From: a virus
Strand: one strand, 5' to 3'
IMG/VR virus record: IMGVR_UViG_3300023180_000042
Coordinates: 10,323-74,322 of that record
Length of the DNA: 64,000 bases
Shown here one piece after another: positions 3-13,868 of the stretch. The notes under the pieces were generated by a model, which worked only from the letters and a program-made list of their open reading frames with translations, was not told the origin of the DNA and made no database searches. Numbering within the stretch: the first letter of the stretch is position 1; every line of letters starts with the position of its first letter. The position numbers were made by a program, and so were the translations under genes.

Positions 3-665
3 GGCAAGATGTTGTCGAGTACTAGAATCAATGCGGCTGGACGATGGAGCCAAGATGCGGATTACTCTAGAGTCACATTGATGCAAAACATCGACTTCGA
101 CACTCCAAAGGCTATTTACAATCTAGCGGCTGAGGAAGCGAATTTCGGTGCTGGAGTCAGATCAGTATACTTCAAGCTTGATTTGAAAACATCGAATGAT
201 TATGTTTCACCTATCGTCGATATGCAGAGAGCATCTTTGACGCTTGCTGGATTCAAGCTTGACAATCCAACCGTAACACCAGGAATTATCTCAGTCGATG
301 AGACAAATCCGACTTCAGGAACAACGGGTTCGAAGCACATTACAACACCTGTATTCCTCGAACAAGATGCTGTAGGCATTGATGTCAGAGCGTTAGTAAA
401 TATTCCTAATGATGCTGATATCTTGTGTTACTACAGAACTGCTGGTGCAGACGAAAATATACAAGATAAGTATTGGATATATCAGGAGAAAGTTGATAAT
501 ATCCCATACGACAATTCTCAAGTATATCGAGATGCACAATGGTTGCCTGGTGGTCTAGGTGGTACTCTGAAGCCATTTAATCAAGCACAGTTTAAGTTTG
601 TGTTTGTGGGTGGCGATAGAGCACCCTCTATTAAGAACCTGAGATACAGATATCTGGCAGTGTAA
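3..665 (+). CDS. C-terminal part of a large virion structural protein (5'-truncated by window)
   Basis: Frame is open from position 3. The C-terminus (SPIVDMQRASL...SKHITTPVFL...FNQAQFKFVF...PSIKNLR) resembles the ends of large structural proteins of marine T4-like phages. Confidence 0.6.
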   Translation, partial: GKMLSSTRINAAGRWSQDADYSRVTLMQNIDFDTPKAIYNLAAEEANFGAGVRSVYFKLDLKTSNDYVSPIVDMQRASLTLAGFKLDNPTVTPGIISVDETNPTSGTTGSKHITTPVFLEQDAVGIDVRALVNIPNDADILCYYRTAGADENIQDKYWIYQEKVDNIPYDNSQVYRDAQWLPGGLGGTLKPFNQAQFKFVFVGGDRAPSIKNLRYRYLAV

Positions 666-930: not shown

Positions 931-3900
931 ATGTCTTATCGTCCTCTCAAACACTTAAATGAAGGTGCGTTCAAAGAGCTACTGACTTCTGAAGAAGACT
1001 ATCTGGCTTATCGAGCGGGTGTTCATTTAAGTAAAATGACAACAAGTGATTTGTCTGCGCTTTCTACTAACGCGGCAGGCGAACTTGTTGGTACGTTTGA
1101 AGACACTTTTTATACCTCTGGTCTAGGTCCCATTCCTGGCTCGACAATTACTCGCACAATTGCGATTACTCATGCATCTGATCCTGCTGGATCAACGCAC
1201 ACTTCTACGTTTGGTGCTTTCACGCCTTTACCCACTGTTGTTTATGTGGGAGACACAATTGAACTAACAATTCAAGGCACAGCGACAAACACAGGCATTG
1301 GATTTGAAGAGATTGAATATCAGTTAGGTATTTCTGGTAGCGCGGCTATAGGAACTATTACTACGACTCCTTCGCCAGCGGCAACGAGTACGAGTGCAAA
1401 CGGTCGAGAAGTATCGTGGGAAAATTATCCTGACGGCAATCTTAGCGGTTCTTATCAAGTCACGTGGTCTATTCCGATTACCGATGATGGCGTAATCAAC
1501 TTCACACTCAACGGTACTACTACTGATTTTCAAAACAGTGTTGTAAGTTCTACCGATGCTGAAGTGCTACCTTCTGTTCGTGTAGAGCCACAGTTGAAGC
1601 CAACTACTTCGGCTACACTGTATGAATTATATCAGAACGATGCGAATGTAGCAACCATCGACAACGACAATGCTCTAAAAAGAAATCCACTCTATTGGGA
1701 TCGAACTGCAACGCCTGCTGGCTTGAAAGAAATGAGCGATGCAGAACTCGATATTGTAGTTCAAAGACTTCTTTTAAAAATCTTTGCAAACGATCTTCCC
1801 GGTCAGTATCGCCTTGCTACAGTATCTCCGGGCGCACAGTGGTCAGAGTTTATCGCAGATGTATTTGAAGACACTCGTGGTGACGGTTCACTTGTTACTT
1901 ATTCTATCTGGGTCAAAACAACCGCAACAGTTCCGACAGTAGTTAAACCTATTTCGCCTTTACGTCAACCGTTGACTAACAAGTTTCAAGGTATAAAGGA
2001 TCTTAATGATTTAGAACTTGAAATGACTTTCGGCGAACGAATGAAGCAGGTTATTCAAGACACTGGCATTGGTAAGTATCAACTTCGATCTTCTGCTGAC
2101 GGACCACCTACAGATCCAGGTACGTGGGAAGCACGTGGTAGTGCAATCGATACAAACCTAACTTACGAATCTGAAACGGCTTATATTTCAACCGATTCGT
2201 ATGATATTAACTACGCTTCGCAGTATCAAGGTTCATATGTTCCTGATTACATAGGCGAGTACATTGACACATACGAATCCAACTATCTTGGTGAATACGG
2301 CGCTACTTATACATCATCTTATACTGGCAATTACGAGGCTACGTACATCGGTACGTTTAGTGGTGATTACGCGCAGAGTTATATAGGCGATTATCTTCTT
2401 GAGTACGCTCAATCTTATGAGAGTGGTTATGAAGGTGAATATGTTCCCAATTATTCGGGTCTTACTGTTGAAGAGCAGTACACGACCATTTACGAAGCTG
2501 AGGACGCGATTGAATTTTATGCGTCAGCATACGCAGAACTTTATGGTGATCTTCCTGTAATTTATACGGGCAACTATGTTACTCAGTACGTCGAGGAAGT
2601 TTATACAGGTAACTTTACGGAACTGTATGTCGGCGATTACGTCATAGACTATAGTGGTAACTTTACAGAAAATTACATCGATGATGTCTATACAGGTAAC
2701 TATATTGACGTATACACTGGCGACTACACAGAAAATTATGAAGGCAACTTTACCGTTAACTATATTCAAACTGAATATGCCGGTAACTTTACACAGCCGT
2801 ACACTGGTGATTTTACAGCCGCATACTCTACGTCTTATGCAGTTACTTACGCACAAGAAAACTATACTGGTAACTATCAATCAGATTATGCTTCTGAATA
2901 TCAAGTGCCTTACACAGGCGACTTCTTAGCCACTTATATTCAGTTGATTTACGGTGGTAATTTCATCGAACAATACAGCGGTGACTTTACTGCAACTTAT
3001 GCGGGCAACTTTACCGAAACTTATACTCAAGCCCAATATACTGGTAACTACTTGTCACAGTACGCTGGCAACTATCAGTCTGATTATTCTGGCGATTATA
3101 TTGGAACTTATGAGCAACAGACTTACACGGGTAACTATATTTCTGATTACACGGGTAACTATCAGTCTCAGTATTCTGGTGACTTTACTGCCACTTATGC
3201 TCAAGCACAATACACAGGTGACTTCATTGTAAGTTACTCTGGTGACTTTATTGCTACATTCCAAGGACAGTATGAAGGCAATTATCAGTCTCAATACACT
3301 GGTAACTTCTTACAGGACTATACTGGTAACTTTATTCAAGGTTTTGAAGGACAATATCAAGGTAACTATCAAGTCAACTATGACGGTAATTACATTTCGG
3401 ACTATGTTACTGCTAGTTACACAGGCGACTTCTTGGCTGTTTATTCGGGCAACTTTGTAGAAACGTTCGAAGGTCAGTACACTGGTAACTATCTTTCGAC
3501 GTATGCTGGCAACTATACTTCAGATTACGTCGGCGATTTTGTTCAGACATTCCAAGGGCAATATGTCACTGTTTACGAAGAGCCGTATACCGGTAACTTT
3601 GTAAACACATTTATTTCTGCTGACTATACAGGCGATTACATCTCGCAATACGAGAGTAATTTCTTGCAAGCGTATTCTGGTAATTACGTCTCACTTTATG
3701 TGCAAGCCAACTATACTGGCAACTTCGCGGCTCAATATACTGGCGACTTTACCGCAAACTATCAAGGCGATTTTCTAACTACATTCGTTGATGCGAACTA
3801 CACTGGTAACTATGCTTCGGATTATGTTCGTGCGTCTTATACCGGTAACTTCCTAGCCACATATTCTGGCGATTTTCTTGCCTCTTATACCGGTGACTTT

Positions 3901-6900
3901 GTTACAACGTTCGTTGATGCGAACTATACTGGTAACTATGTTAGTCAATATTTGGGGACTCGGAATGTAACTTATTCGGGTAACTACATTTCGAATTACG
4001 CACAGGCGAACTATACGGGTAACTTCCTTGCAACATTCGTTGATGCAAACTACACAGGCAACTTCCTAGTAACTTATGCTGGCGACTTTACTGCTACATT
4101 CCAAGGGCAGTATCAAGGTGACTATGAGTCGGGCTATGCTGGCTCATTCGTCGCTCGATATACTGGTGACTTCTTAGGAACATTCCAGGGTCAATATGTT
4201 GGTGATTTCTTAGCCAACTATGATGGCAACTTTATTGCAAATTACGCTGGCGACTTCCTTGCTACGTTCCAAGGGCAGTATGTTGGTGACTATGTTGGTC
4301 AGTATACAAGACAAATCAACGTAGGCTATACAGGAAGCTTTCTGGCGACATTCCAGGGACAGTACACAGGTTCGTTTTCTCAAACTTATGTAGGGACTTA
4401 CACAGGCACATATGTCGGTAACTACACTGGTACATATGTCGGAAACTATGCTGGTGCTTATGTATCGGCGGCAGCCACTTATCAAGGTGGCTACGCCGGT
4501 GCTGCCGCTTGGACATCGTACTTCTTCAGTCTTAGTTCTCCTCGTTATTACTGGTATACGACACAAGCAAGATTTGCTTTTCCCGTAAACCGTTGGTTTT
4601 ATTGGAATAATTCATTTCAATCATTGGCGAGCATTGCCAATGACGGATTAGTTCCCTTTTTTAGTCGCGGTTTTGAATATGAAGCGGGTACCATACAATA
4701 TCAGACAGGATCGTCTTTAAGCACTCTCCGCAACTATTACAATATCAGACGCCGGTCAATTTTTGGTGGCTCAACATACACTGGCGGATATACCGGCGGT
4801 GGCGGCACTTATACAGGAACATATGTTGGTTCGATTCAGCAAACCTATACTGGCTCGATTCAACAGTCGTACGATGGTAATTATATTGGCTCTGTTAACA
4901 TAACATTCGTTGACGCAAACTATACTGGTGACTATCTTGGTCAGTATATACGAGCAATTAATCAAAGTTACACAAGTGTGTTCCAACAAACATTCGTTGA
5001 TGCAAACTACACTGGTAACTTTATTGTTAATTATTCAGGCGATTATGTTTCTCGTTATACGGGCAACTTCCTTGCAACGTTCGTTGATGCAAACTACTCT
5101 GGTAACTTCTTAGCGACATATACCGGCAACTATACTGGTGTATATGTTGGTAGCTTCCTTGCAACGTTTGTTGATGCAAACTATGTGGGTAACTATGTTT
5201 CGAACTATACCGGTGACTTCTTAGGAACGTTCCAGGGTCAGTACGTTGGTGATTTCTTAGCAACATTCCAAGGTCAGTATCAAGGCGATTTTATTGCGAA
5301 CTACGTTGCAACGTTCGAACAAAATTACACTGGTGACTTCCTTGCTACGTTCCAAGGCCAGTATCTGGGTAACTTTGTAACGCCTTATACTGGCAACTAT
5401 ATTTCAAATTATGCTGGCGACTTTACGGCGGCGTATACTGGAAACTATGTTGGCGATTTCTTAGCCACGTTCCAGGGACAATATCTGGGTAACTTTACTG
5501 TACAATATACCGGTAATTATCTGAGTCAATATACTTCTGATTTCTTAGCCACGTTCCAGGGACAGTATGTCGGTGATTACATTTCGAACTATAATGCAGA
5601 CTTCAATACTCAGTATCAGTCAAACTTTACGGCAACGTTCCAGGGTCAGTACATTGGTGATTTCTTAGCAACATACACTGGCACTTATGACACAATATAT
5701 GTTCAAGCCGACTACACTGGTAACTTCGTCACAACATACAGTGGTGATTATATCTCTGATTACACCGGTGACTTTACTGCCAACTTCGTTTCACAGCAAT
5801 ACACTGGTGATTATATCTCTGATTACACTGGTAACTTTGCAGTAACGTATACTGGTAATTATCTCGGCGATTACGTTTCGCGATACACTGGCGACTACGT
5901 TGGAAATTACGCCGATCAAGTGTACGGTGGTGACTTTACTCAAGTCTATACTGGCGACTTTACGAATAACTACGTTGGCGATTATATTTCTACATACGCT
6001 CAAGCAGATTATTCTGGTAACTACGTATCAAATTATCAGGGTAACTTCACGGCGCAGTTCGAAGGTCAATACGTAGGCAACTTCTTAGAAGATTATACGG
6101 GCGACTTTACAGCTATTTACTCTGGTGACTTCCTTCAAGGATTTGCTGGTCAATACGAAGGTAATTATATTACTCCGTATACCGGTGATTATATTTCAGC
6201 CTATACTGGTGATTTTCTTGCAACGTTTGAAGGTCAATATGTTGGCGATTTCATCGTACAATACACTGGTAACTTCATCGAAACTTATGAAGCAGACTTC
6301 GTACAAGATTTTGAAGGTCAGTATACTGGTAACTATCAGTCTGACTATACTGGCGATTATGTCGCAATTTATACTGGTGACTTCTTACAGATTTTCCAAG
6401 GGCAATATGTCGGCGATTACGTAAAAGCATATATCGGCAATTATCAGTCAGCCTATACGGGCGATTTCGTATCGATATTTGAAGGTCAGTACACCGGTGA
6501 TTATCTGTCTGATTACACTGGTAACTATCAAGCAAATTATTCAGGCGACTATCTGTCTAACTTCGAAGGTCAGTACACTGGTGACTTTATCGTAACATAC
6601 ACAGGCAATTACGAAGTAGACTACACGGGCGACTTTGTTGAATCATACACCCAAGATTATGAGCAAGACTACATAGAAGATTATGTTGCTCAAGAAGCAT
6701 ACGTAACGGCTTATGCTGGAAACTACACTCCAACATACGAAACAGTTTATACTGGTGATTATACTCCTGATTACGAAGGTCCATCGGGCGACTATTTAGG
6801 AACCTATCTTTCGAATTACACTGAAGAGTTGTATGCGCAAGAGTTTACGGTTGACTACATATCATTAGACTATACGAGAAATCGCGAAGAAAGTTACACT

Positions 6901-7173
6901 GGTGATTCTTATATAGAAACGTACACAACTGATTTCGAATCAAGTACTGATTACGCCACTTATTTGGGCGGTGATGATAATGAAGAATATGTAGGAACAT
7001 TTGAGGGCGCGGGAGATGCAGAAGTTTATGGTGGTTCTCCTTATGAAGGATCTAGTTACGTATCTGATTACAATCGAGTAGTTACCATCGCAGAAGCATA
7101 TTTGGATGACGCTAAATTAACATCAACACCAGTAACAATTGAGACATTTACATTATACGTACGTGTTGCTTAA
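931..7173 (+). CDS. Giant Tyr/Phe tetrad-repeat protein; putative self-complementary beta-hairpin fibre with central tip domain
   Basis: 2080 aa: ~410-aa N-terminal base, ~1640 aa with Y/F every 4th residue, and a unique central domain at aa 1194-1282. Late promoter; lies among virion genes. Confidence 0.75.
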   Translation: MSYRPLKHLNEGAFKELLTSEEDYLAYRAGVHLSKMTTSDLSALSTNAAGELVGTFEDTFYTSGLGPIPGSTITRTIAITHASDPAGSTHTSTFGAFTPLPTVVYVGDTIELTIQGTATNTGIGFEEIEYQLGISGSAAIGTITTTPSPAATSTSANGREVSWENYPDGNLSGSYQVTWSIPITDDGVINFTLNGTTTDFQNSVVSSTDAEVLPSVRVEPQLKPTTSATLYELYQNDANVATIDNDNALKRNPLYWDRTATPAGLKEMSDAELDIVVQRLLLKIFANDLPGQYRLATVSPGAQWSEFIADVFEDTRGDGSLVTYSIWVKTTATVPTVVKPISPLRQPLTNKFQGIKDLNDLELEMTFGERMKQVIQDTGIGKYQLRSSADGPPTDPGTWEARGSAIDTNLTYESETAYISTDSYDINYASQYQGSYVPDYIGEYIDTYESNYLGEYGATYTSSYTGNYEATYIGTFSGDYAQSYIGDYLLEYAQSYESGYEGEYVPNYSGLTVEEQYTTIYEAEDAIEFYASAYAELYGDLPVIYTGNYVTQYVEEVYTGNFTELYVGDYVIDYSGNFTENYIDDVYTGNYIDVYTGDYTENYEGNFTVNYIQTEYAGNFTQPYTGDFTAAYSTSYAVTYAQENYTGNYQSDYASEYQVPYTGDFLATYIQLIYGGNFIEQYSGDFTATYAGNFTETYTQAQYTGNYLSQYAGNYQSDYSGDYIGTYEQQTYTGNYISDYTGNYQSQYSGDFTATYAQAQYTGDFIVSYSGDFIATFQGQYEGNYQSQYTGNFLQDYTGNFIQGFEGQYQGNYQVNYDGNYISDYVTASYTGDFLAVYSGNFVETFEGQYTGNYLSTYAGNYTSDYVGDFVQTFQGQYVTVYEEPYTGNFVNTFISADYTGDYISQYESNFLQAYSGNYVSLYVQANYTGNFAAQYTGDFTANYQGDFLTTFVDANYTGNYASDYVRASYTGNFLATYSGDFLASYTGDFVTTFVDANYTGNYVSQYLGTRNVTYSGNYISNYAQANYTGNFLATFVDANYTGNFLVTYAGDFTATFQGQYQGDYESGYAGSFVARYTGDFLGTFQGQYVGDFLANYDGNFIANYAGDFLATFQGQYVGDYVGQYTRQINVGYTGSFLATFQGQYTGSFSQTYVGTYTGTYVGNYTGTYVGNYAGAYVSAAATYQGGYAGAAAWTSYFFSLSSPRYYWYTTQARFAFPVNRWFYWNNSFQSLASIANDGLVPFFSRGFEYEAGTIQYQTGSSLSTLRNYYNIRRRSIFGGSTYTGGYTGGGGTYTGTYVGSIQQTYTGSIQQSYDGNYIGSVNITFVDANYTGDYLGQYIRAINQSYTSVFQQTFVDANYTGNFIVNYSGDYVSRYTGNFLATFVDANYSGNFLATYTGNYTGVYVGSFLATFVDANYVGNYVSNYTGDFLGTFQGQYVGDFLATFQGQYQGDFIANYVATFEQNYTGDFLATFQGQYLGNFVTPYTGNYISNYAGDFTAAYTGNYVGDFLATFQGQYLGNFTVQYTGNYLSQYTSDFLATFQGQYVGDYISNYNADFNTQYQSNFTATFQGQYIGDFLATYTGTYDTIYVQADYTGNFVTTYSGDYISDYTGDFTANFVSQQYTGDYISDYTGNFAVTYTGNYLGDYVSRYTGDYVGNYADQVYGGDFTQVYTGDFTNNYVGDYISTYAQADYSGNYVSNYQGNFTAQFEGQYVGNFLEDYTGDFTAIYSGDFLQGFAGQYEGNYITPYTGDYISAYTGDFLATFEGQYVGDFIVQYTGNFIETYEADFVQDFEGQYTGNYQSDYTGDYVAIYTGDFLQIFQGQYVGDYVKAYIGNYQSAYTGDFVSIFEGQYTGDYLSDYTGNYQANYSGDYLSNFEGQYTGDFIVTYTGNYEVDYTGDFVESYTQDYEQDYIEDYVAQEAYVTAYAGNYTPTYETVYTGDYTPDYEGPSGDYLGTYLSNYTEELYAQEFTVDYISLDYTRNREESYTGDSYIETYTTDFESSTDYATYLGGDDNEEYVGTFEGAGDAEVYGGSPYEGSSYVSDYNRVVTIAEAYLDDAKLTSTPVTIETFTLYVRVA
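2164..7070 (+). repeat. Coding tetrad repeat array ([YF]xG[DN] alternating with [YF]xxx), punctuated by 5-aa bulges and FxGQ units
   Basis: Direct parse of the translation. DNA repeats are degenerate, with some exact copies, e.g. GATTTCTTAGCCACGTTCCAGGGACA at 5455 and 5539. Confidence 0.95.
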
Positions 7174-7188
7174 AATATGGAGTAAATT

Positions 7189-7668
7189 ATGGCAAAGTAT
7201 GAGTACTTAGATAATGCATTTTGGGAAGCAGAAGATCGCTCAATCGTAAAATGCATTAGGCTAACTACGCTTGAAGGTCAAGAAGGCAAGAAGAAAAAAG
7301 ACGTTATGGAGTTTCGCAAGATTCGTCCTGATGGCTCTGAATGCCCTCACTATAAAGAAGTGGTAACAAAAGTAGGCATTCCAAAGATTGATGAGAATAC
7401 TGCTGAACGTAAAGAAAGAAAAGAGCGTGAAGTAAGAGAAAAACGCGCTCATCACGAGCAAAAGAAAAAGACTGCTGAACTAGAGCAACTTTTCAATCTT
7501 AAGCTTCAAGCCTTTGAAATTGAAGAGATTAAAAATTCTGAAGATCGTGTATTACGTGGCAAGATTCGTAGAGCGCAAAATGTAGTAGAAATGAATGCGT
7601 TGTGTGCAGTTTTGATCGCAAAAGAATTGGGCTATTATGGAGACAAAGATGACGCAGGAGCCAACTAA
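7189..7668 (+). CDS. Basic, helical hypothetical protein; possible fibre assembly chaperone
   Basis: GGAG RBS; K/E/R-rich; immediately downstream of the giant gene. Function inferred from position only. Confidence 0.5.
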   Translation: MAKYEYLDNAFWEAEDRSIVKCIRLTTLEGQEGKKKKDVMEFRKIRPDGSECPHYKEVVTKVGIPKIDENTAERKERKEREVREKRAHHEQKKKTAELEQLFNLKLQAFEIEEIKNSEDRVLRGKIRRAQNVVEMNALCAVLIAKELGYYGDKDDAGAN

Positions 7669-8386
7669 GGGTTACGTAATCGTTGCGTCACGGCGAAGTT
7701 TCTTTTATGTGTCTGCACTTAATTTGATGGAATCAATTCGCGATTTTTATCCTGATGCAAATATCTGTCTAGTCTGTGAAGAAAAGTTTCTTGATGATCG
7801 AGGACGAAAACTCGCCAACGAAATAATTTTCTGTAACGATCACAAGCGAGCCAAACTTTGGGGCATGGCAAAGTCTCCATGGGATATTACATTCTATATT
7901 GACGCAGACACAGAAGTCGAGCATGAAGACATTGAACATGTCTTTGGCGAACTGAATGGCTATGATGTCATGTACACTGGTCTTCCCGAAGAACGTTCTT
8001 ACTGTTATGCAGAACTGAAGTTTCCTGGTGGTCAATTCGAACTGTGTGGGGCAGTGTGTCTGTATGACATGCGCAATCCATTAGTGCGCGAGTTTATGTG
8101 GGACTGGTATGATCTGACTGTTCAACAATACGCAGGCACTTGGTGGCCACAGAAAGAAGATGGAACAGAAGATACTGAATTATATCCTGCAACGTTGAAG
8201 CGTTGGGATCAATTCTCTCTTTGGTGGCTTGTAAACAAAGAGCCCAAGTATCAAGACTTGAAAGTGGGTATCTTTGAAGATGACGCCAGATGGAACTATT
8301 TTTCACGCTATAAATATGCTCACAACAAGAAGCCTGTTGTTATTAGACATTATTCTGCTTCTGAAGCGAAGCATATGGAGTTTTGA
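7649..8386 (+). CDS. GT-A fold glycosyltransferase
   Basis: N-terminal GYVIVA strand, DxD motif FYIDADT, later WDQ..L and C-terminal VIRHY motifs as in GT8-like enzymes. GGAG precedes ATG 7649. Confidence 0.75.
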   Translation: MTQEPTKGYVIVASRRSFFYVSALNLMESIRDFYPDANICLVCEEKFLDDRGRKLANEIIFCNDHKRAKLWGMAKSPWDITFYIDADTEVEHEDIEHVFGELNGYDVMYTGLPEERSYCYAELKFPGGQFELCGAVCLYDMRNPLVREFMWDWYDLTVQQYAGTWWPQKEDGTEDTELYPATLKRWDQFSLWWLVNKEPKYQDLKVGIFEDDARWNYFSRYKYAHNKKPVVIRHYSASEAKHMEF

Positions 8387-9063
8387 TGAGAGATATTCCA
8401 CTTAACGATTTTGCATTAGACATCTTAGATGATGCGCTTTGGTTCACTCAAGACAAGAACTATGAGACTGTTGTGCTAACAAAGAAAGATAAGCACACCA
8501 AAGAAGATGCTGACTGGTATACCGGCGAAGCATACTTCAAACAAATTATGGCGCAAGGTACAGGTCATAATGGATTTCCAGAAATTGTGGTATCTCATGG
8601 TTTTGGCATTGGTCAAATGCATTTCTCTAAAGAGAGAACTTCGCAGGCAAGAATTCCTGAAGTCTCTATGAAACAGGATGCGTTTTTGCAAAAAATACAA
8701 ACTACGTTCAATTTGAAACGTAATGCTCTATTTGCGGTTTATCCGCCAGGTGGTTACATTTCTTGGCACAACAATGCGAATGCTTCTGCATTCAACTGCG
8801 TCTTTACTTGGAGCGAAACCGGCGATGGTTGGTGGAAGCACTGGGATAATGAAAAGAAAGAAATGGTAACGATACCTGATAAGAAAGGCTGGCAATGTAA
8901 AGTTGGTTACTTTGGTGCGTACGAAGATCCTGCCGAAAAGCTAGTGTATCACACAGCACGAAATGGCGACACAGGTTTACGCATGACAGTTGCATTTGTG
9001 CTTGACAGATCAGAGATGGCTATAGGAATGCAAGATTGGATTATTGAAGATATTCACGCCTAA
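8386..9063 (+). CDS. 2OG-Fe(II) oxygenase-like (double-stranded beta-helix) protein
   Basis: YPPGGYISWHNN, distal VYHTA and R-x-T-VAF. HxN replaces canonical HxD. TGATG-coupled to the glycosyltransferase. Confidence 0.6.
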   Translation: MRDIPLNDFALDILDDALWFTQDKNYETVVLTKKDKHTKEDADWYTGEAYFKQIMAQGTGHNGFPEIVVSHGFGIGQMHFSKERTSQARIPEVSMKQDAFLQKIQTTFNLKRNALFAVYPPGGYISWHNNANASAFNCVFTWSETGDGWWKHWDNEKKEMVTIPDKKGWQCKVGYFGAYEDPAEKLVYHTARNGDTGLRMTVAFVLDRSEMAIGMQDWIIEDIHA

Positions 9064-9068
9064 ATTAT

Positions 9069-9076
9069 TATAAATA
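9069..9076 (+). promoter_or_regulatory. T4-type late promoter
   Basis: Intergenic TATAAATA. Confidence 0.8.
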
Positions 9077-9110
9077 GAGCCATAAGATTCATTTTTTAGG
9101 TTAGAGACTT

Positions 9111-9464
9111 ATGGCAAGGTATGAAGAATTAACTATCGATCAGGGAACAGATGTTTCTCTTGACGTGTATCTTACGAACATCGATGGTTCACCAAAAGAT
9201 TTGTCTGGCTATTCAGCCGCGGCTAAAATGAGTACGCGGTATGACGTTGATAGCTCAGATAAAATCTCTTTCGACGCTTATGTCACTGTCCCTCCAACTG
9301 CCGGCATTGTTAACTTATCTTTGACAAACACCGTCACAGATACGCTAAATAGTAAAAGAAAATATGTTTACGATATGGAAATTTCATATCAAGACAGCGA
9401 TGCCAACACTATCGTAGAAAGAGTTCTTGAAGGACTTATAACAGTAACGCCTTCGGTAACATGA
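9111..9464 (+). CDS. Small beta-sandwich virion/baseplate adaptor protein
   Basis: IDQG.D...DLSGY.A...YVYD.EI...RVLEG.ITVTPSVT pattern typical of marine myovirus structural adaptors. Confidence 0.65.
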   Translation: MARYEELTIDQGTDVSLDVYLTNIDGSPKDLSGYSAAAKMSTRYDVDSSDKISFDAYVTVPPTAGIVNLSLTNTVTDTLNSKRKYVYDMEISYQDSDANTIVERVLEGLITVTPSVT

Positions 9465-9471
9465 GGTCAGT

Positions 9472-10623
9472 ATGTCAGTACAAGTAGGAAACAGGACATT
9501 AGTAAGCAAGATAACGTACGGTACACCTTATCGTACTGCTGTCATTTCTGCTAGTGCCGACATTGATGCAATCACAGGTCTTGTCACATCAGGTGCAGTA
9601 GACGGCTCTCTCTTTGAATACGACTCAGCGTCAGGCAACTGGAAAGCCACGTTAACACTTCGAAAGCAGATTATCGATGGTCGTGTTTATCCGTCTGACT
9701 CAGATCGTGCACAGATTCTTATTCGGCGCTCGGGCACTCAGGGCGATCCACTTGTTTTAAGAACAGGTGAATTAGCATACTCATATCTTTCAGACTCTGG
9801 TAGTTCCGCAGACGGCTTCGGCTTAGGCGGTGATCGTCTGTTTATTGGTGCTGGCGGCGATTCGTCAGTTGCGGGTGTACTACAAGCAGAGCGCATCGAT
9901 GTAATCGGTGGTAAGTATTTTACTGATCTACTGAATCATCCACATGGTGTGCTAACTGCTTCTAGTGCGATTATAACAGACTCCGAAGGTAAAGTCAATA
10001 CTTTAAAAGCTGGCTCGCTAGAACTAGACAGTGCTACGCTGGGTAGACTGGCGGTATCTGATTCTGCAATCTTTAACGATCTGCAAGTTCTTGGCACACA
10101 AACCATTGTAGAAATTATTGCTGATCGTATCAACGTTGACAACCTCACTGTTGATAGTAGTCTGAGTGTTCTAGGACTAGCCTCGTTCAACGACAGTGCA
10201 ACCTTTGCTGGTAAAATTACTGTAAGTGGTGCTGGTGTATTTGATGATACACTCGATGTAGCAGGACTTACCACACTCGATTCTGCTGTTATAAACAATC
10301 TGAGGGTTGATTCTAGCCTTGAAATTCCTGGCTCATTGACCATTGCAGGCACTACTACGTTTGACTCTACTGCAACGTTCAATGGTGAAGTCAACATTGG
10401 CGAAAGAACACTAAGCGAGTTTATTGATAGCGATGTGTTCCAATTGTTACGTGCAGGTCAGGCTATCATCTTAACATATGCAGATGATAGTGACAAATTA
10501 ACGATTTCAGTTCCAACAGCTACGGCTAATACACCTGGAGTTGCGTTCTTCGACTCAGCGCAGTTCACTGTCGATTCAAACGGTCAGGTTTCATTGCTGG
10601 AATTTGAAGGCGGTGACTTTTAA
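9472..10623 (+). CDS. Tail-fibre-like virion protein, Asp-Ser rich
   Basis: GELAYS/DRLFIG...VIGGKYFTDLL fibre motif and beta-rich repeats; 16 DS dipeptides. Confidence 0.65.
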   Translation: MSVQVGNRTLVSKITYGTPYRTAVISASADIDAITGLVTSGAVDGSLFEYDSASGNWKATLTLRKQIIDGRVYPSDSDRAQILIRRSGTQGDPLVLRTGELAYSYLSDSGSSADGFGLGGDRLFIGAGGDSSVAGVLQAERIDVIGGKYFTDLLNHPHGVLTASSAIITDSEGKVNTLKAGSLELDSATLGRLAVSDSAIFNDLQVLGTQTIVEIIADRINVDNLTVDSSLSVLGLASFNDSATFAGKITVSGAGVFDDTLDVAGLTTLDSAVINNLRVDSSLEIPGSLTIAGTTTFDSTATFNGEVNIGERTLSEFIDSDVFQLLRAGQAIILTYADDSDKLTISVPTATANTPGVAFFDSAQFTVDSNGQVSLLEFEGGDF

Positions 10624-10658: not shown

Positions 10659-13600
10659 ATGGCAATAACAAAAATTATCCATAAAAAGACGAGTGTCCCG
10701 GAGAAACGTCCGGGCATCGCCGATATCGAGCTTGGTGAAATTGCGATCAATACGTTTGATGGCAAGATGTTCATCAAACAAGATAGAAATGGTGAGGTTG
10801 ACATTGTTCAAGTCGGTGACGATCCTACACCCAACGTATACTATGTTTCTAAATCAGGTAAGAATGGAAACTTAGGTACGTCTCTTTCTGATGCATTCCG
10901 CACAATTGACTCTGCTGTCGATCTTATCACAACACTCAAAGATTTTGATTTTGACGAAGGTATTTGTCGAAGAGACTTGGGTCTCATTCTTGATGGTCTA
11001 CAGTTTGATATTGCTTTTGGAACAAACTATAACGCAGTAACGTCTGGTCTCGCATATCAAAGAGGCAGTGTAAGTGCGGTCAAAGTTATTGAAGAGCAAA
11101 TCGTTGCTACACGAAGTGCATTCAACGAAGCAAAGGGTGCTATCGCTTCCCTAGATCCTGTTAAAGCAAGCACTGGCGATGATGGTGCACTTGCAAGAAA
11201 TGCTAGACACTGGGCAGAGGTTGTTGATATTCTTGTCAACGGAACGCAAAGCACAGAAAACTTTGCTGACTCTATCGAATATCCAGTTCCTGTTGTTCTG
11301 CCTACAGCAGACGCAGATGATGCGGCTGTCATTCTACAGAACAACCGTGAGTATCTAAAGAACGAATTAGTCCAGTACATTGCAGAGAACTTCCCTGCTC
11401 TTACTTATGACCGAGACTTGTGTTCGCGTGACACAGGATACATCATCGATGCTGTAACGCTCGATTTGATGCTCGGTACAAACTTCAACTCCGTCACTGC
11501 GGGCTCTGCATATTATAGAGGAAATGCATCTGCGCAGTTGGTGATCAGTGATCAGCTAGAAGGAACAGTTGGTGCAATCAACGAATTAGGTCGTTTGATT
11601 GGCGAACTTGCCATCGACTCTGATTCTCGGGTAAATGTTACAAGCAGTATTGCAGAGATTACTGACATTATTAGCAACGGTCTTGATGGTGCTGATGCGT
11701 TTACTTATCCTGCGGCTCCTGCATCTACAGCAAATCAACAAACAGCCGCTACTGCAATTCAGTCTAATCGAACAGCAATCATCAACTCGACGATTGCTTG
11801 GATCGACAGTAACTATCCAGCATTGTCTTACAACTCTGCTACTTGTGGTCGTGACGTAGGATTTGTACTTGACGGCTTGACACACGATATTCTCTATGGT
11901 GGTAACTATCAGTCTCGTAGAAGTGCTGATGCATACTTCTCTAATGCTGTAAGTCAGTTGGGCGATTCTGAAACATTACCTACTGTTGCGGCATATGACG
12001 AACTAAAGAACATCGTCAACACTTATGTCACAACTTCAACAGAGCAAGCCCGTGTCAACGACTTGATCGAAATTGTAAACGAAGTTCTTGAAGCCGGTAA
12101 TGTTGCTGTACTCAGACCTCTCGTTTATCCAAACTTTACAGGTATTGACGGCACAACAACTGCATCTTACAATTTGATTCTAGCCGACTCTGCTAATCTT
12201 AAAGCGGGCGTGATTGCATATGCCGATCAGAATGGTCCTGCAACGTATGATCGTGTTCGCTGTAAGCGAGACGTTGGTTTCATCGTAGACGGCTTGACAT
12301 TTGACGTTCTGTATGGTGGTAACTTTGCGAGCGATATTGTTGCACGTGCATACTTCTCGTTTGGCACAAATCAGTTGGGAGACAGTGCTTCTGATCCTGA
12401 AGTTGTCGCGACAGTATCGACTTATCAGCACCTGAAGCAGATTGTTGACGAATTGCTTTCTAACAGCCTGTCTTCTAATTTGTACGAGCAAGGAACTTGG
12501 CCAGGTGCTGGTGTTGGTCCTGACTCTTCTGGTAATGGCGGTAACTACTCTACTGCAACTGAAGCGCAGGTCACAAATGACTTGCTAGACAATTTGATCA
12601 CTGTTATTACAGAGGGAAGTCTTGCCAGTATCGATTCTGTACAAGAGCCTAGCCTTGCGGCTCGTGCTGTTCCTATCGAGTTAAGAAACGCTGTTCAGTC
12701 TATTAACGACGAACGAAACCTCATTATTACTCAATCAGTACAGCGAGCGCAAGCTACAAATGATATTACAATTTATCTCAAGTCGGGTGATTATGTAATT
12801 AATAACCCAATTCAGCTACCTGAGAAGGTTGCTATCGTGGGCGACAACTTGAGAACAACGACGATTCGTCCGTTTAGCGTAGACTCTGATTTGTTCTATG
12901 TGAGAAGCGGATGTTTCTTGAAAGACATTACGTTCCGAGATCATCAAAGCGGAGCGGCTTGCGTAGCATTTAACCCGAACGTTGACTCGCCAAGAGCAGG
13001 TCCGTTTATTGTACAGTCTCCTTACGTACAGAACTGTACGTCGATTACTACTGACGGTATTGGTATGAAGATCGACGGTTCGAAATGTTGGGGTCTGCGT
13101 TCGATGGTATCTGACGCATTCACTCAGTACAACGCGGCTGGTACTGGCGTATATCTACTCAATCGTGGTTATGCGCAGTTGGTATCGATCTTTACGATTT
13201 CGACTGCAACATCTATTCTTGCTGAAACTGGTGGTCAGTGTTCTATCACTAACTCTAACACCAGCTTTGGTGACTTTGGTCTTATCGCACGAGGTAGTAG
13301 CCCAGTTCTTTACTCTGGTATTCTCGACTCTGATTATGCCAAGTTTGATGATGTGATGCAAGTGAATGAGATTATTAATCTTGATTCGGCAGACTGGCTA
13401 AATCCATACGGCGAGTATAAGAAGCCGAACTATGGTGATGCGATAAAGTTTGACTCAGAAGATTACTATTACACATGTCTTGGCGTCGATTCAGTTGCAC
13501 CTGGTGTTTATAACATCACATTCCAGCCACCGTTGAACCAAGACATGAGACGTAATCAGAAAATTAGTTTTGTTCAACGTTCTGTTATCACATCATCTTC

Positions 13601-13868
13601 ACACACGTTTGAATACGTGGGTGCGGGTACGAACACCTTTACTGCTATTCCTCAGAATGGTGGTATTCCTGATCCTACAAAAGAAGTTATTTTCGATTCT
13701 GAGACGAACGAAGGTCTGGTGGTATTCACGAGTACGGACCAGCTGGGTGACTTTAGAATTGGTGCTGAACTGACAATTCGTAGACAGGCAGGTCGAATCG
13801 AGGGCGAGACGTTCGAAAGATCGTTGTACGCAATTCTAACTCCATACATTCTAGCACTAGAGGGTTGA
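10659..13868 (+). CDS. Large virion protein: fibre-type N-terminus, four CxRD helical repeats, pectin-lyase-like beta-helix
   Basis: GEIAINTFDGKMF N-terminus. The beta-helix start (YYVSKSG...AFRTI / IYLKSGDY...IVGDNLR...QSPYVQNCT) is split by 4 repeats. Confidence 0.7.
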   Translation: MAITKIIHKKTSVPEKRPGIADIELGEIAINTFDGKMFIKQDRNGEVDIVQVGDDPTPNVYYVSKSGKNGNLGTSLSDAFRTIDSAVDLITTLKDFDFDEGICRRDLGLILDGLQFDIAFGTNYNAVTSGLAYQRGSVSAVKVIEEQIVATRSAFNEAKGAIASLDPVKASTGDDGALARNARHWAEVVDILVNGTQSTENFADSIEYPVPVVLPTADADDAAVILQNNREYLKNELVQYIAENFPALTYDRDLCSRDTGYIIDAVTLDLMLGTNFNSVTAGSAYYRGNASAQLVISDQLEGTVGAINELGRLIGELAIDSDSRVNVTSSIAEITDIISNGLDGADAFTYPAAPASTANQQTAATAIQSNRTAIINSTIAWIDSNYPALSYNSATCGRDVGFVLDGLTHDILYGGNYQSRRSADAYFSNAVSQLGDSETLPTVAAYDELKNIVNTYVTTSTEQARVNDLIEIVNEVLEAGNVAVLRPLVYPNFTGIDGTTTASYNLILADSANLKAGVIAYADQNGPATYDRVRCKRDVGFIVDGLTFDVLYGGNFASDIVARAYFSFGTNQLGDSASDPEVVATVSTYQHLKQIVDELLSNSLSSNLYEQGTWPGAGVGPDSSGNGGNYSTATEAQVTNDLLDNLITVITEGSLASIDSVQEPSLAARAVPIELRNAVQSINDERNLIITQSVQRAQATNDITIYLKSGDYVINNPIQLPEKVAIVGDNLRTTTIRPFSVDSDLFYVRSGCFLKDITFRDHQSGAACVAFNPNVDSPRAGPFIVQSPYVQNCTSITTDGIGMKIDGSKCWGLRSMVSDAFTQYNAAGTGVYLLNRGYAQLVSIFTISTATSILAETGGQCSITNSNTSFGDFGLIARGSSPVLYSGILDSDYAKFDDVMQVNEIINLDSADWLNPYGEYKKPNYGDAIKFDSEDYYYTCLGVDSVAPGVYNITFQPPLNQDMRRNQKISFVQRSVITSSSHTFEYVGAGTNTFTAIPQNGGIPDPTKEVIFDSETNEGLVVFTSTDQLGDFRIGAELTIRRQAGRIEGETFERSLYAILTPYILALEG

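Follow-up and report, generated by a model that had tools for sequence, protein, structure and literature searches.

The closest thing yet described to the protein considered here is the T4 gp37 needle, ten times shorter, stapled by iron and unrelated in sequence. In the fragment of gp37 that includes the needle (domains D10-D11), residues 811-881 and 1010-1026, on either side of the needle, make up D10, and the receptor-binding tip falls in the middle of the fragment's sequence; the trimer is held by seven His-coordinated iron atoms (PMC6957217). The beta-hairpin 'tentacles' of intramolecular chaperone domains and Alteromonas phage fibre chaperones are two-stranded and twisted and reach up to ~88 Å (PMC10579305). 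The subject of this report is a single open reading frame in a stretch of 64,000 nucleotides of virus record IMGVR_UViG_3300023180_000042 (positions 10,323 to 74,322; the window, below), part of a 74-kb contig of an uncultured virus; by DNA, its closest relatives in GenBank are T4-like phages of marine origin. It encodes a protein of 2080 amino acids (aa), P0001, and holds the whole of a long region of aromatic tetrapeptide repeats, divided by a non-repeat centre into an N-arm and a C-arm. P0001 is a putative virion fibre, judged by its structural-gene neighbourhood and by synteny kept in relatives. An initial annotation of the window had read the two arms as a giant antiparallel hairpin. The mirror-complementary pattern behind that reading is confirmed as real and far beyond chance. 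There is good support for a chain that runs out and back, its arms antiparallel and in register, with the tip domain midway along the sequence and the two termini gathered in the base.

P0001 would resemble the gp37 needle in an out-and-back chain and in forming a thin, beta-structured, receptor-binding fibre end, a topology that for P0001 is supported by sequence symmetry and by the modelled closure of the base. The needle comprises ~200 residues as against ~1,650 in P0001, and gp37 has neither tetrads headed by Tyr or Phe (Y/F) nor a code of bulges; only its tip runs out and back, whereas in P0001 the whole shaft would do so. While gp37 carries iron-binding His motifs, the arms of P0001 (Tyr plus Phe 24%, Gly 12%) contain zero His and zero Cys, with 4 His in the whole protein, and comparison with Pfam, PHROGs and PDB sequences detected no similarity to the collar or needle of gp37 or gp12. 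The analogy with gp37 made in the initial annotation therefore holds for topology and stops there, at arms devoid of His and a sequence unlike that of gp37. The chaperone tentacles share with P0001 the use of long two-stranded hairpins in fibre biology; they are tens of residues long and accessory rather than a shaft, with no repeat code described. Beta-solenoid rods, among them antifreeze and ice-binding proteins, curli and Fap amyloids and tailspike beta-helices, are similar in their short repeats, in a super-period of 28/29 residues and in Gly-Asp/Asn at possible corners, but P0001 matches no Pfam repeat family, and its periods of 5 and 3 units tell against a constant coil length. We know of no solenoid with two arms in mirrored complementary code.

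A mirror-complementary marker code in P0001

From its N terminus P0001 consists of a non-repeat domain, a Y/F tetrad arm, the non-repeat centre, a second arm and an acidic stretch ending ...IETFTLYVRVA. Consecutive Y/F residues are exactly 4 residues apart in 314 cases and 5 apart in 33, and a script that parsed units by Y/F, with the register set by two heptamers, reproduced the tetrads and the two marker types reported earlier, a 5-residue unit (B) and FxGQ (Q). The marker strings of both arms and their shared series of spacings were likewise recovered. Read outward from the centre, the N-arm is QQQQ BBBBBBB QQ B QQ BBBBBBBB, with spacings of 8,6,6,6,4,2,6,6,2,6,6,4,6,4,4,6,4,6x7; the C-arm is BBBB QQQQQQ BBBB QQQQQQQ, with spacings of 8,6,6,6,4,2,6,9(=6+1+2),6,6,4,6,9(=4+1+4),6,4,6x6. 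At shift 0 every C-arm marker (21/21) faces an N-arm marker of the opposite type, a 5-residue unit against FxGQ. Matches numbered 14-16 at shifts of +/-7 and 10 or fewer at all others. The match far exceeds that of shuffled marker orders, since shuffles of (gap+marker) blocks gave at most 13 matches in 200,000; when types alone were shuffled, 21 matches were reached once in 200,000, and shuffles of gaps alone gave at most 19. Three N-arm bulges face ordinary tetrads (both YVxAS units opposite YTGN, and the outermost, YVEEV, opposite YTQD), the heptamers YVSAAAT and YTGGGGT flank the centre, and YTRQ-INVG and YIRA-INQS stand at units 12-13 of their respective arms; all of these pairings had been noted by eye from the letters and all were found by the scripted parse.

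The mirror extends further than the initial annotation had said. Successive tetrads have Gly and non-Gly at position 3 by turns, an alternation that slips at every marker; this accounts for Gly facing non-Gly in 131/154 pairs at shift 0, as compared to 38-40 at +/-1 and 111-116 at +/-7. Beyond the last marker, odd-length units coincide at unit 155 (YGDLPVI/YVAQEA) and unit 162 (YSGLTVEEQ/YEGPSGD), and the symmetry thus spans about aa 468 to 1998. No inverted DNA repeats were found within positions 2000-7173 of the window; this rules out a palindrome at the DNA level and places the mirror at the protein level only. Long-range self-similarity within the protein peaks at lag 29 for the N-arm but at lag 28 for the C-arm, both sharper in a 3237-aa homologue (0.41 at 29, 0.48 at 28), so that along most of the shaft the outbound strand would be longer by ~1 residue in every period.

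Arm lengths across an unnamed fibre family

P0001 belongs to an unnamed fibre family, defined here by an N-module, Y/F tetrad arms, a central domain and a C-terminal ETYTLYVRxA. It has the N-module, the C-terminal motif and two roughly equal aromatic-tetrad arms around a non-repeat centre. In a library of 1.8 billion proteins clustered at 50% identity, the N-module (aa ~220-410) matched 299 clusters at E<=0.001, a number that falls to 227 at E<=1e-10. Seven of its residues (G291, D314, G381, P393, G397, W399 and G403) are invariant in 110 sequences, as are T2074 and Y2076 of the C-terminal strand. That strand was recognized by the motif (E)T(Y/F)TLY(V)R, either closing the protein or standing before a short extension; it lies within the last 60 residues in 111 collected proteins of at least 450 aa, and nearly all members that are long enough terminate in ETYTLYVRxA. 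Members range from ~480 to 4,046 aa on a shared plan of base module, aromatic-tetrad arm, non-repeat centre, aromatic-tetrad arm and C-terminal strand. The only period common to the family is 4/8 residues, while longer periods vary (28/29, 12, 32/36 or none), and for this reason a ribbon fits better than a coil of fixed size.

Among 50,697 GenBank phage records, the N-module was found only in Phage C48C1 (Kyanoviridae), where the protein is annotated as hypothetical. This homologue, WJE88074.1 (3347 aa; OQ984149.1, L001:1821-11864), shares with P0001 the N-module, a C-terminal ETYTLYVRVA and four downstream genes. It differs from P0001 in that some 150 aa are missing from the start of the base, the arms are rich in Arg (YSRxRxSxY) and at least five extra globular domains interrupt the return arm. 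A stretch of ~85 aa in it is repeated almost exactly (aa ~2000-2084 and ~2085-2168) and looks like a recent internal duplication. A search of P0001 against Pfam returned no family at E<=1 apart from one spurious match, and no curated repeat family such as the pentapeptide, hexapeptide or pectate-lyase-like repeats. PHROGs gave no match for the whole of P0001, its N-domain, its centre or a second member, P0038; PDB sequences gave no match at E<=0.01. The ESM Atlas likewise yielded nothing informative, whether for the protein as a whole, for its N-domain or for its centre. The initial annotation knew of no description of such an architecture, and searches of the literature on cyanophage or fibre hairpins, on tetrapeptide repeats and on C48C1 turned up none, either of the family or of a coded-hairpin fibre shaft.

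If the arms are matched to one another, homologues should gain blocks in both together, and this was seen in the 3237-aa homologue (L006:6545), whose N-domain is 60% identical to that of P0001 and whose arms comprise 326 and 325 units. Its first ~110 units share the aperiodic code of P0001. About 170 units have been added in both arms, as bulges in the N-arm and FxGQ in the C-arm, and a new short '2' spacing in the added part is mirrored in both. Over the first 300 units, 40/40 C-arm markers were matched, with Gly complementarity in 288/300 and a maximum of 27 matches in 50,000 shuffles. The five N-arm bulges left unmatched face either YTGN, which stands at the two positions known from P0001, or a degenerate FIGL/FIGA.

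Arm lengths point the same way across the family. In 61 members with cleanly segmented arms, N-arm and C-arm length are correlated (Pearson 0.88, Spearman 0.78), and the two agree within 10% in 26 members, compared to 4.2 expected and at most 12 when the centre was placed at random. Examples include 330/330, 302/302 and 290/294; automatic segmentation gave 767 and 791 aa for P0001. P0006, whose arms are differently composed, has 78-79 slots per arm with an odd unit at slots 37-38 in both, and its phase slips, read by eye from the slot table, coincide at slots 1, 12, 19, 26, 31 and 36. In P0071 and P0018 the local period-12 profile is mirrored (r 0.84 and 0.78), with negative values in direct order (-0.62 and -0.42). 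The same-lag local-period profile showed no mirror in P0047 and P0059, whose two arms differ in residue period; in P0047, return-arm 5-residue units were seen by eye opposite outbound YQGT every 7 slots. A classification by Gly only fails to capture the unit types of distant subfamilies. In P0020, a metagenomic protein of 2238 aa, reading by eye from the base places a DFILD-type block of the N-arm opposite an ETNPT-type block of the C-arm, with the reverse further out; ~550 aa of the N-arm consist of a third repeat type for which no partner is obvious. The facing of these blocks would be block-level complementarity with quite different repeats.

Base, tip and shaft of the proposed fibre

If the arms pair, the two termini of the protein must meet. 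ESMFold2, run with alignments on aa 1-420 and aa 2031-2080, joined the two parts with an interface score (interaction prediction score from aligned errors, ipSAE) of 0.90, the best control scoring 0.00. The 0.90 mark was reached by 58/80 solved complexes and 2/110 mismatched pairs, which gives only a rough calibration, as the author's own alignment was used. Runs showed at least 67% contact agreement, with a predicted local distance difference test (pLDDT) of at least 42 for the partner. Residues 2067-2080 touch residues 379-409, between strands 380-386 and 398-402, and 399-402 run antiparallel to 2078-2075; the run held one copy of each part, and a protein's own C-terminus and that of a neighbour are indistinguishable in it. 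No PDB sequence match exists for a like complex, so memory of a solved structure is unlikely to be the source of the prediction. AlphaFold2 on full-length P0038 (615 aa, 72 sequences) gave a base with pLDDT above 90, a long strand leaving it at 242-268 and another entering it at 585-613 (pLDDT 85-98). Both the closure of the base and the extended pair of strands that leaves it are model predictions. The paths from the heptamers to the base contact, counted from the sequence, are 767 and 774 residues.

Foldseek comparison of the base model with PDB and BFVD returned nothing at E<=0.001. VIA-align gave middling matches of the P0038 base to beta-prism domains (MACPF C-terminal domain and MABP; Z 6.0-6.4, root mean square deviation 3.8, 116-122 residues aligned), which span residues 40-615 of the model and include the C-terminal strand. 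These scores lie below a trustworthy level and give a hint that the base is a three-sheet prism; the match would agree with a pseudo-threefold base in which one loop carries the arms as an insertion.

The centre sits midway between the two base anchors and is the variable part of the protein. Residues 1190-1282 are 35.5% identical to their counterparts in relatives L004 and L005 and 44.1% identical to that in L003. The base, both arms and the C-terminus of L004/L005 are 82-89% identical to P0001 (arms 87-89%), and the arms are free of any indel. A conserved scaffold (W, GGYEY, YYEIRRR) bears variable loops. On these alignments we propose that the centre is a specificity cassette, a fast-evolving distal receptor-binding domain.

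We consider it probable that P0001 is an out-and-back fibre whose N-arm and C-arm lie antiparallel, unit for unit, on a base formed by both termini. The virion-proximal base would be the N-terminal domain (aa 1-410) folded together with the final 14 residues, the N-arm (aa 411-1176) would exit from it, the ~93-aa central domain would form the distal receptor-binding tip, and the C-arm (aa 1294-2000) would return beside the N-arm. Tetrads with Gly at position 3 (YxG[DN]) would stand opposite tetrads without it (e.g., FLAT, YISD), and a phase slip, made of a 5-residue unit in one arm and FxGQ in the other, could be read as a beta-bulge, as 5 residues opposite 4 is the geometry of the classic beta-bulge. 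The irregular spacing of the slips (7,7,7,5,3,7,7,3... units) would permit a single register, and length would be adjusted by duplicating 7-tetrad periods in the two arms in step. Since the 28/29-residue period comes close to a full turn of a beta-strand twisted by ~13 degrees per residue, the bulges may all face the same side of a twisted ribbon. The broader claim of an out-and-back chain with in-register antiparallel arms, which takes in a solenoid variant discussed below, we hold to be highly probable. The narrower claim, that each chain makes one continuous two-stranded antiparallel beta-ribbon, stands at even chances; such a ribbon would measure ~250 nm in P0001 (767 x 0.33 nm, strands taken as extended) and ~450 nm in the 3237-aa homologue. 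What we say of direct backbone pairing along the whole shaft, of its ~250 nm length, and of oligomeric state, attachment site and receptor binding, we infer.

Several points weigh against this model. Extra globular domains occur in Phage C48C1, P0004, P0008 and P0055, and the arms of these proteins are equal only if the domains are side insertions. Insertion into the side of one arm is a plausible but weak reading for C48C1, P0004 and P0008, and in multi-domain relatives a 'balance point' always exists, so a balance test is only weakly supportive. The covariation between facing units that had been anticipated was weak in simple residue-level tests, which gave similar p values at other shifts: pairing of F/Y at position 1 with D/N at position 4 of facing units yielded p = 0.023 at shift 0 and 0.04 at another shift, and co-substitution at facing units between P0001 and L004 gave an odds ratio of 2.1 (p = 0.027), similar at shift -3. 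Where a tip-proximal hairpin had been looked for (aa 1036-1440), AlphaFold2 run without an alignment instead gave short strands at a 28-residue period, as in a beta-solenoid, and a disordered centre. The confidence of this model (mean pLDDT 47.8; N-arm part 70-78) is too low to settle the fold, and its only Foldseek matches were weak and resembled beta-helices. In the P0038 model the arms beyond the base strands (pLDDT ~33) and the centre came out unmodelled. The virion location of P0001 is itself putative, and we know of no precedent for a two-stranded ribbon of 250-450 nm. Of the giant hairpin first claimed, the out-and-back course, the single register and the non-repeat domain at the turn are supported by co-expansion, equal arms, the hypervariable centre and the docked C-terminus; continuous hydrogen bonding, aromatics packed over Gly and a length of ~200 nm are not, in view of the low-confidence solenoid-like model and the weak covariation.

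Each arm could instead fold by itself into a parallel beta-solenoid in which every marker period makes one coil of 28/29 residues, the two rods packing antiparallel, side by side and coil against coil. The coil sides would be ~12-13, 8 and 8 residues with GD/GN at the corners, the 5-residue bulges would fit into FxGQ notches, and the out-and-back topology would be kept with a P0001 shaft of only ~13 nm. The single-sequence AlphaFold2 model, with strands of 10, 5 and 5 residues per 28 at pLDDT 70-78 in the N-arm part, speaks for this arrangement, as do the identity of the best (weak) Foldseek matches, which are beta-helical ice-binding and antifreeze proteins and functional amyloids, the strong 28/29-residue autocorrelation, and a complementarity that is still 75% at shifts of +/-7. 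We nevertheless judge it unlikely. Towards the base the arms keep a regular period of 7 tetrads, but their tip-proximal two thirds include seven marker periods of 5 or 3 units, and such lengths (20-21 and 12-13 residues) could not complete a coil of 28 residues. In many family members the tetrads follow no set longer period, or one of 12 or 32/36, and the arms of small members (90-120 residues) would amount to only 3-4 coils, not enough for a rod. Alignment-based AlphaFold2 gives continuous strands of 27-29 residues leaving the base, and it is general knowledge that structure predictors are biased towards solenoids for repeats supplied without alignments.

The marker code by itself cannot separate pairing within a chain from pairing between chains, and most phage fibres are oligomeric, as is well established. 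Subunits might form a domain-swapped dimer or trimer, or polymerize head to tail, with each N-arm lying on the C-arm of a different subunit and the code setting an intermolecular register. This we regard as very improbable, as the base is predicted to be closed by the protein's own C-terminus, even though single-copy runs cannot tell it from a neighbour's, and as both arms meet the same 93-aa domain and are hence neighbours at the tip in any case. Spurious regularities are common in low-complexity repeats, and one could suppose that the arms make no contact and that their symmetry is a by-product of repeat evolution or composition. DNA duplication cannot yield a mirrored order of protein blocks, and inverted DNA repeats are absent; shuffle controls fall far short in both P0001 and the 3237-aa homologue, and the code has been kept and symmetrically extended in that homologue despite an N-terminal domain only 60% identical. 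Such a by-product, scarcely credible in our view, is already contradicted by the shuffles, the co-expanded homologue and the arm lengths of the family.

If the out-and-back course of the chain is true, P0001 represents a new way to build a phage fibre, in which the receptor-binding domain is encoded mid-gene and both chain ends form the anchor, and in which shaft length is set by paired repeat numbers (arms of ~90 to >1,300 residues in the family). The C-terminus of marine phage fibres is usually assumed to be the tip, and the model would change where receptor-binding regions are sought in marine phage genomes; hundreds of metagenomic proteins that now lack annotation would gain a name. It would also provide a rule, natural and legible in the sequence, for keeping two very long beta-strands in register, relevant to protein design and to how long beta-structures avoid misregistration. 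An extended ribbon would be the longest beta-hairpin known, unprecedented in scale and in its register code. It would amount to complementary-strand pairing in protein form, and would evolve through duplications matched at two sites that lie kilobases apart in the gene. The extended ribbon and the paired solenoids, as the two leading models, differ ~twenty-fold in fibre length.

Feature coordinates and neighbouring genes

Table 1. Features of the P0001 gene and the genes that follow it, in window positions.
Feature	Positions	Strand	Basis
Whole gene, putative virion fibre	931..7173	+	Single open reading frame; structural-gene block
Putative N-terminal base domain, aa 1-410; widely conserved module aa ~220-410	931..2160	+	299 matching clusters; invariant residues; homologue model
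N-arm (outbound), aa 411-1176; Y/F tetrads, 24 markers, period ~29 aa	2161..4458	+	Scripted parse
Heptamer YVSAAAT, N-side origin of mirror register	4459..4479	+	Scripted parse
Putative central tip region between heptamers, aa 1184-1286; non-repeat domain aa ~1190-1282	4480..4788	+	Hypervariability
Heptamer YTGGGGT, C-side origin of mirror register	4789..4809	+	Scripted parse
C-arm (return), aa 1294-2000; Y/F tetrads, 21 markers, period ~28 aa	4810..6930	+	Scripted parse
Irregular acidic linker from C-arm to C-terminal strand, aa 2001-2066	6931..7128	+	Sequence; no confident base contacts named in ESMFold2 run
C-terminal strand, aa 2067-2080; family motif ETYTLYVRxA (FTLY in P0001)	7129..7170	+	Predicted insertion into N-terminal domain near aa 379-409
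Four small downstream genes (159, 249, 226 and 117 aa)	7189..9464	+	Order kept in relatives

Genes downstream of P0001 have matches to tail-fibre and tail-sheath-stabiliser PHROGs, as in a structural-gene block. The four genes directly 3' of the fibre gene are found in the same order, at 37-60% identity, in L004, L005, L006 (first three only) and Phage C48C1. None of the four has a Pfam match at E<=0.01; the C48C1 counterpart of the fourth is annotated as 'L-shaped tail fiber protein assembly'. Directly upstream of P0001, positions 9-665 (+) encode the C-terminal end of another very large protein, which covers profile positions 1848-2051 of 2056 of phrog_358 (function unknown) and is kept upstream of the fibre gene in 7/7 related viral contigs at 67-87% identity. 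Further downstream, positions 10659-13868 (+) encode a protein of 1069 aa with several tail-fibre PHROG matches, the best at 1.2e-81. Its first 505 aa are 79% identical in L004/L005, compared to 91-99% for neighbouring genes, and it is a second variable fibre in the same gene block.

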